Assembly (NCBI RefSeq): GCF_056712565.1
Contig: NZ_CM160072.1
Strand: one strand, 5' to 3'
Length of the DNA stretch: 64,000 bases
Shown here: piece after piece, positions 58,851 to 59,192 of the stretch
How positions within the stretch are numbered: the stretch's first letter is position 1
How the letters are laid out: every line of letters starts with the position of its first letter
Program-made: the position numbers and the translations under genes
Notes under the pieces: generated by a model
What the model was told of the DNA's origin: nothing
The model's database searches: none
The model's input: the letters and a program-made list of their open reading frames with translations, nothing else

Positions 58851-59192
58851 CATATTCTTTCCTGTTCATACTGGAGAGAATTGTACTACAGTTTGAACAC
58901 AACTCACCGTTTTCATCCTGGTGTATGTGTATCCAGGGGGCTCTGGCGTGGCAAGAGATAAAGGCAGGAACAATAATGATCAGAAGGAACCCCAGGCTAA
59001 CGAATGAGTTCACTCTTCCTGGGAGCAAAGCGAAGACAAAACATGTTATCGCGTTTACGGATCGTGGATGGCAGAAAACAACCAGGATCAGGTATCCATT
59101 TTAAACCAGAAATTGAGTGAGTTTGCCCCATCCATGCCCCACGCTGTGGGATCGGATATAATTAAACAAGCATAGTCAACAGGTTACACAAC

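Follow-up and report, generated by a model that had tools for sequence, protein, structure and literature searches.

The question raised by this locus is what occupies the unannotated stretch between the start of emrE and the end of fliE in an Escherichia coli chromosome. The window, i.e. the whole stretch of DNA analysed, comprises 64,000 nucleotides of contig NZ_CM160072.1 (RefSeq assembly GCF_056712565.1), and its last 10 kilobases (kb) are 100 % identical to the corresponding DNA of E. coli strains UTI89, S88, APEC O1 and the type strain ATCC 11775. An earlier, sequence-only reading had described an unassigned interval of about 340 base pairs (bp) from the emrE start to the fliE stop; the interval is real, spanning 344 bp from 58849 to 59192, with the emrE start codon ending at 58848 and the fliE stop codon beginning at 59193, and RefSeq places no feature in it in UTI89 or in most of the identical genomes. 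Judged by its homologies, this gap is a wrecked phage integrase gene together with a phage attachment (att) site at the end of fliE. It very probably represents the integrase-proximal end of an ancient lambda-like (DLP12-like) prophage that has undergone heavy deletion and that had integrated site-specifically into the 3' end of fliE, and it is an ordinary genomic, prophage-derived scar, neither a new gene nor a new system.

The identification of the integrase is based on comparison with that of Escherichia phage IdasGreatGrand (PP925829), an intact protein of 434 residues in which Pfam recognizes PF12167 (arm-DNA binding, E = 5e-26) as well as the catalytic domain PF00589 (E = 7.5e-18). This integrase falls within phrog_1, is a distant relative of tyrosine recombinases of solved structure, lambda Int among them, and is related to integrases of Enterobacter phage CobraSix and Klebsiella phages. 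Two pieces of such a gene lie on the plus strand of the gap. Fragment A (58941-59050) corresponds to codons ~239-277 (ALAWQEI--KAGTIMIRRNPRLTNEFTLPGSKAKTKHVI) and shows 74 % DNA identity to the phage (L006, 3001-3116; blastn E = 9e-16; blastx in frame +2, E = 1e-11), whereas fragment B (59046-59175) corresponds to codons 393-434 (YRVYGSWMAENNQDQVSILNQKLSEFAPSMPHAVGSDIIKQA) and a TAG stop codon at 59173-59175. The DNA from 59046 to 59212 is 97.6 % identical to the phage (L006, 3461-3627; blastn E = 1e-78), and the blastx alignment of fragment B covers codons 387-435 at 88 % identity (E = 1e-26) in frame +1, i.e. a different frame from that of fragment A; fragment B also matches phrog_27762 (E = 1e-10). 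The fragments overlap by 5 bp (GTTAT), and ~344 bp of the phage segment is absent between them. Since that length is not a multiple of three, the internal deletion, located at a GTTAT(C) microhomology, is out of frame.

Across 58941-59175, the similarity to full-length integrases is significant, unlike that of shuffled sequence, and by this homology the segment is an integrase pseudogene in two fragments, even though a Pfam search with the fragments alone returned no family. Only ~81 of 434 codons are left, in two frames, the first 238 codons being gone; lacking the arm-binding and core-binding domains as well as most catalytic residues, and being frame-broken, the wreck is non-functional. The suspicion, voiced in the sequence-only reading, that a recombinase or att remnant might be found here was thus well placed, and the comparison with integrases that it proposed as a check yields similarity far beyond chance. 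A survey of 5426 complete E. coli genomes located the 127 bp from 58920 to 59046 in 2620 of them, always at this locus; the only other match was a full-length E. coli integrase gene (H110), to which fragment A is 77.6 % identical. In strain XB2, the Prokaryotic Genome Annotation Pipeline (PGAP) labels the equivalent of fragment B 'integrase; incomplete'.

Homology to the phage passes the integrase stop codon by 37 bp. It first crosses a 17-bp spacer (59176-59192, plus strand) that is near-identical to the phage attP, with one substitution (59189 is C in the window, A in the phage), and then a 20-bp core, CTACACCTGCATGGACATCA (59193-59212, plus strand), which is identical to the attP core and whose minus strand spells the fliE stop codon and the last six fliE codons (VMSMQV). 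Beyond 59212, the phage (TATGACC...) and the host fliE (CTTCCTG...) diverge. A second copy of the core, CTACACCTGGATGGACATCA (54909-54928, plus strand), having one mismatch to the first, lies 16 bp past the stop codon of yedK. The resulting 20-bp direct repeat, CTACACCTG[C/G]ATGGACATCA, has 0.00 occurrences expected by chance in the window and is present there in just these two copies. The core is thus repeated at both ends of an island, and the core and one arm match a sequenced phage attP, with the match breaking at the core edge. At the left end, 54909-54929, extending one base into the other arm, is 95 % identical by blastn to the attP (L006, 3608-3628), and the window and K-12 sequences part exactly at 54908/54909. 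Conservation across genera likewise has its left edge exactly at 59193, the fliE stop codon forming the left edge of the repeat. The expectation that the gap would be the island's far junction therefore holds as to the boundary, given that phage homology ends at 59212 within fliE and that the core recurs at 54909-54928 beside yedK; the true core at 59193-59212, however, lies just beyond the right-hand coordinate that had been proposed, within fliE itself.

Each arm additionally contains a tandem motif, TGCCCCGT-AC-ATGCCCCAT at 54937-54955 (plus strand) in the int-distal arm remnant and TGCCCCAT-CC-ATGCCCCAC at 59124-59142 (plus strand) inside the integrase 3' end, in the int-proximal arm. Within the 64 kb, the pattern TGCCCCRTNNATGCCCCAY occurs only at these two places (0 expected), and the motif TGCCCCRT-NN-ATGCCCCAY has one occurrence in each arm of the island, one in each arm of the phage attP, and no other in either sequence. 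From their position, the tandem TGCCCC motifs are plausible candidates for arm-type integrase-binding sites. Compared with the distal arm of the reference phage, ~110 bp are gone between the left core and the motif, and, apart from the TGCCCC motif, the ~130 bp from the left core to the DLP12-like homology upstream of the porin gene (54929-55060) are unassigned as to origin.

Because the core stands at both 54909-54928 and 59193-59212, the intervening block is read as a decayed lambda-like prophage remnant of ~4.3 kb (54909-59212) that has kept both att junctions. In order, it contains the core, the int-distal arm remnant, an nmpC/ompC-like porin gene (55405-56487, plus strand), ybcM (56989-57786, minus strand), ybcL (57796-58347, minus strand), emrE (58516-58848, minus strand), the integrase fragments and the core. 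It is bordered by yedK (54224-54892, plus strand) on one side and, on the other, by fliE (59193-59507, minus strand) and then fliF (from 59722, plus strand), all of these genes being placed by the list of open reading frames (ORFs) and an identical RefSeq genome. In UTI89, the RefSeq locus tags go from UTI89_RS10395 (emrE) to UTI89_RS10410 (fliE); two tags in the gap were seemingly once assigned and then withdrawn, or are not displayed.

The assignment of the remnant to a lambdoid source is also based on its likeness to the K-12 prophage DLP12 (intD ... renD-emrE-ybcK-ybcL-ybcM ... nmpC), with which the island shares its cargo genes, their order and their orientation (emrE>ybcL>ybcM ... <nmpC), as well as homologous DNA in the ren-emrE intergenic region and upstream of the nmpC porin gene. 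However, DLP12 sits at argU, has intD as its integrase gene, and retains ybcK, the nin region, Q and the lysis genes, all of which are absent from the fliE island. In a broader sense, the island resembles lambda-type attL/attR junctions, in that the core is repeated at both ends, int lies beside and reads toward one junction, and arm motifs are repeated, and it resembles the junctions of prophages that target gene 3' ends, in that the phage supplies the gene end and the host reading frame is preserved. Lambda's own attB is intergenic (gal-bio), the lambda core and arm sites differ in sequence from those of the island, and recombination at the island site is predicted from sequence comparison.

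The left part of the gap belongs to emrE. When 58700-58925 (query 1-226) was compared with emrE-carrying lambdoid phages, the identity was 94 % and the matches spanned features annotated as EmrE and Ren (H112-H122); similarly, alignment with the DLP12 emrE locus of K-12 shows homology running ~76 bp upstream of the emrE ATG and ending at the renD stop codon. Therefore, 58849 to ~58925 (minus strand) is emrE's own phage-derived 5' flank, i.e. what separates ren from emrE in lambdoid phages, together with the final few bases of ren, and it presumably carries the emrE promoter and 5' untranslated region. A blastx alignment of fragment A that reached back to 58877 was discarded for that part, because 58877-58925 is 94 % identical in DNA to the phage ren-emrE intergenic region. 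Between the end of the ren-emrE homology at 58925 and the start of the integrase homology at 58941 lie ~15 bp without assignable homology (58926-58940), which mark the joint where a deletion brought the ren 3' end next to the integrase fragment.

In the proposed history, a lambdoid prophage would have inserted into the fliE 3' end by site-specific recombination. Many phages that target gene 3' ends carry a copy of the gene's end, and fliE would have stayed intact upon integration because the phage carries a copy of the fliE end. A deletion at the ~15-bp joint would then have taken out the DNA from ren as far as mid-int, presumably including replication, immunity and early-left genes, xis and int codons 1 to ~238, and a second, out-of-frame deletion of ~344 bp at the GTTAT(C) microhomology would have joined int codons ~239-277 to the last 42. 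The simplest course would be one lambdoid prophage minus three blocks, namely ren to int codon 238, ybcK with the nin region and Q, and the lysis-to-tail genes. What remains for the gap to do is passive: it would serve as the emrE 5' flank, and the junction provides the final codons of fliE as well as the DNA that comes after its stop codon. The intact core has served as a landing site for related phages in other strains and would be able to do so here.

A relative of the gap is already known from K-12. In MG1655, the pseudogene intG (b1936), annotated as belonging to 'cryptic prophage PR-G', abuts fliE and overlaps its 3' end, as the sequence-only reading had supposed when it placed a defective integrase gene there. 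The alignment of the two intG-fliE junctions is only partly as that reading anticipated. By direct alignment, the window is homologous to K-12 from 59045 rightward and unrelated to the left; 59045-59192 aligns with K-12 (L002, ~7564-7700), with an 11-bp indel, yet this is just the right-hand ~43 % of the gap, and the rest is not intG-like, its left ~77 bp being the emrE flank. The alignable sequence has the same chromosomal position, beside the fliE stop codon, in both genomes, and both genes are C-terminal integrase fragments oriented toward the fliE 3' end and followed by the same core, the identity being 94 % in K-12-type genomes. On the other hand, intG keeps more codons just upstream (QMRRSDVQGG-YRVYG) and has no fragment A, its neighbours are yedL and yedN instead of emrE-ybcL-ybcM-porin, and its core has GCTC where the window has GGAC (fliE Ser codon AGC vs TCC). 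The K-12 intG frame translates as ...RSDVQGGYRVYGSWMAENVQDQVSILNQKLSEFAPSMPHAV..., the window giving the same peptide and then its stop codon; K-12 lacks the 11 bp ACAAGCATAGT (window 59167-59177) that span the integrase stop codon and the first spacer bases, and it is because this deletion removed the stop codon that the K-12 intG ORF runs antisense into fliE. The last ~27 codons of the annotated gene (L002, 7503-7781) are not integrase sequence.

The likeness to the reference phage extends to the whole junction, since the last 42 int codons, the stop codon, the 17-bp spacer and the 20-bp core of IdasGreatGrand are 97.6 % identical to the window and its attP has the tandem TGCCCC motif at the same place, whereas its int is intact and that of the window consists of two out-of-register pieces. 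The serine codon concerned lies two residues before the FliE C-terminus (...MSMQV; window 59202-59210, K-12 L002 ~7706-7714) and is spelled TCC by both the window and the phage, as against AGC in K-12-type genomes (plus strand, GGA and GCT, respectively); in other genera the codon is AAC (Asn) or GGC (Gly). The fliE end is swapped at each integration and is therefore effectively phage-supplied DNA.

Comparison with other genomes indicates that the fliE end has been used repeatedly. Among complete E. coli genomes, six have a full-length integrase of the same family directly abutting fliE. Strain OkiPb01711 harbours a complete, core-flanked, P22-like prophage of 38.7 kb, with an old integrase remnant on one side and fliE on the other. 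Its polymorphisms are of the resident type (11-bp gap, GCTC) at the left junction and of the phage type (GGAC) at the right; the crossover is therefore placed in the final ~5 bp of the core, in keeping with site-specific and not homologous recombination. Strain FLI21 has an intermediate, core-flanked wreck of 12.9 kb (int, xis, exo, bet, gtrABC). The core was also sought in one genome per species, with three wildcards allowed; many chance matches arose in unrelated phyla, and the Enterobacteriaceae loci alone were used. Unoccupied fliE ends, which have the same core next to an unrelated left flank with yedF adjoining, are present in Citrobacter youngae, Lelliottia, Buttiauxella, Pluralibacter and others, and host-core-phage-arm junctions occur in Citrobacter FP75 and Res13. 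Thus, the site is known both occupied (OkiPb01711, FLI21) and unoccupied, the latter in other genera and not in E. coli.

Scanning one genome per species also revealed further integrase remnants in other Escherichia species. Escherichia whittamii (L065, 503-672) has a third, independent deletion form, in which codons near AVYTGVRHG (CTGTTTATACGGGAGTTCGTCACGGA) are fused to the last ~10 bp of the gene, before the same core. In Citrobacter and one unclassified Enterobacteriaceae genome, yedF adjoins the unoccupied fliE end, its C-terminus ...DGPTIRYLIQK being readable and no yedK intervening; yedK, whose product is an SOS-response-associated peptidase, may likewise have been inserted in Escherichia at an earlier date. 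A 1526-bp record deposited as 'Salmonella phage S.Kent 1-2-1' (OR851689.1; H135) is 91 % identical to the fliE 3' end (59194-59250), which hints that it may be a Salmonella prophage junction at fliE deposited as phage sequence. A literature search for fliE as a phage integration site, or for intG together with fliE, returned nothing relevant, the hits being author-name false positives and unrelated mentions.

Several points weigh against the reading and history given above. No contiguous, clean yedK-core-fliE empty site was found among the 5426 E. coli genomes with a synthetic query made of the yedK end, the core and fliE, and the ancestral E. coli state can for this reason only be deduced, from the repeat and the other genera. 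The two integrase fragments are unequal in their identity to the reference phage, i.e. 74 % for A against 97.6 % for B, so that either the source phage of the remnant is unsampled or the integrase wreck is a mosaic. The emrE block and the integrase could come from different, successively integrated prophages. Finally, the consensus scan gave neither a promoter nor a terminator, so that the regulatory roles are putative.

The alternative that survives best, albeit as an unlikely one, is a composite origin, in which two or more prophages integrated successively at fliE and a later deletion brought the int/att end of one up against the emrE-ybcL-ybcM-porin segment of another. In line with this, tandem arrangements do form at fliE, the OkiPb01711 prophage having arrived beside an old integrase remnant; no fewer than four forms of the yedK-fliE interval are known; and the reference phage matches fragment B far better than fragment A. 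However, the gene order and orientation of the island (int toward att, emrE>ybcL>ybcM, porin reversed, distal arm) fit a single lambdoid prophage such as DLP12, and just two copies of the core are present. A composite origin would overturn the single-prophage history but would leave the 344 bp identified, as before, as integrase wreck and att site.

Whatever its origin, the chance is slim that the remnant has more than a passive role, i.e. that the island, having kept both att cores and the candidate arm sites, might still excise or be mobilized with the integrase and excisionase of a related phage acting in trans, or, separately, that the integrase 3' end, retained almost universally beside fliE, might have been co-opted, e.g. 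for ending the fliE transcript. Excision would leave a yedK-fliE junction reading ...GGAGATTAT-CTACACCTGSATGGACATCA-CTTCCTGATACGCC....

Also improbable is that the gap serves chiefly as a regulatory element in cis or as an RNA, such as a leader or riboswitch of emrE, a small RNA or a fliE terminator, and for that reason is kept in nearly all E. coli. The left 77 bp do accompany emrE in phages and in DLP12, and therefore probably hold the emrE promoter, and the C-terminal integrase piece adjoins fliE in 5363 of the 5426 genomes, which could reflect a role 3' of fliE. Nevertheless, a search of 58300-59800 against Rfam gave no match at E <= 1; the consensus scan for promoters and terminators yielded nothing above shuffled expectation, with no minus-strand promoter (the emrE/fliE strand) above the scan threshold and no terminator-like site; and the RNA fold 3' of fliE is no more stable than that of shuffled sequence (z = -0.97). 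Near-universal presence is equally well explained by old inheritance and repeated integration at the same site.

The ORFs in the gap are readily accounted for by the integrase pseudogene. On the plus strand, an ORF of 59 codons (58925-59104) is, by blastx, a chimera that reads fragment A in frame and fragment B out of frame, and not a gene. Within it lies the 42-codon ORF ('atgatcagaaggaacc', also given as 'atgatcagaagg') to which the sequence-only reading had drawn attention; it exists, but at 58976-59104, ~39 bp lower than the ~59015-59143 proposed, and it is not without a family, as its first ~24 codons are in-frame integrase sequence. The minus-strand ORF said to extend emrE upstream (58516-59028) is present as described (170 residues, TTG start), although RefSeq EmrE has 110 residues and starts at 58848; the extension of 60 codons (58849-59028, minus strand) is spurious, running antisense through fragment A, and the DLP12 homology 5' of the emrE ATG is non-coding and includes the ren stop codon. 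Pfam searches with the translations of three local ORFs gave no family, the only hit being a non-significant one to Phage_tail_X (E = 0.11). By their sequence, both ORFs singled out earlier are frame artefacts of the integrase wreck. That the gap encodes a real small protein, be it the 59- or 42-codon plus-strand ORF, a 35-codon ORF (MAENN...) or the N-extended EmrE, is scarcely credible despite the presence of these ORFs, the retention of the stretch at >=95 % identity in ~2600 genomes and a hydrophobic stretch within the EmrE extension, given that every ORF is explained as an in-frame, out-of-frame or antisense piece of integrase, that none has a Pfam family, that the extension has a TTG start and passes through the region where the phage homologues have the ren stop codon, and that conservation does not exceed that of the adjoining, vertically inherited DNA.

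Taking the gap to be the int-proximal end of a prophage remnant, its distribution can be set within that of the yedK-fliE interval, which in E. coli takes at least four forms, besides the complete prophages of a few genomes. The window type (porin-ybcM-ybcL-emrE) accounts for 2620 of the 5426 genomes (~48 %); the second is the K-12 type (yedL-yedN-intG); the third is a short type of 617 bp, found in 393 genomes, which corresponds to the K-12 type minus yedL-yedN and is the closest to an empty site; and the fourth is the 12.9-kb remnant of FLI21 (int-xis-exo-bet-gtrABC). The gap is an already known kind of feature, with a pseudogene homologue in K-12 and equivalents that PGAP flags in some window-type genomes. 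What is added is limited to the two-fragment structure, the two att junctions and the bounded 4.3-kb island, and current understanding is not overturned.

Annotation of UTI89-type genomes, roughly half of the complete E. coli genomes, can now label the emrE-fliE gap as a two-fragment integrase pseudogene and att junction, and the yedK-fliE block as a bounded prophage remnant (54909-59212). A YbcL variant of uropathogenic E. coli (UPEC) reportedly suppresses neutrophil transepithelial migration, whereas the K-12 DLP12 copy, which differs by one residue, does not (reviewed in PMC4810123); the ybcL copy in the remnant (57796-58347) is the UTI89 allele. On the present reading, this studied UPEC immune-evasion allele, emrE and the nmpC-like porin gene are phage cargo stranded at fliE, the 3' end of which is a recurrent integration site of one integrase family across Escherichia, Citrobacter and Enterobacter.
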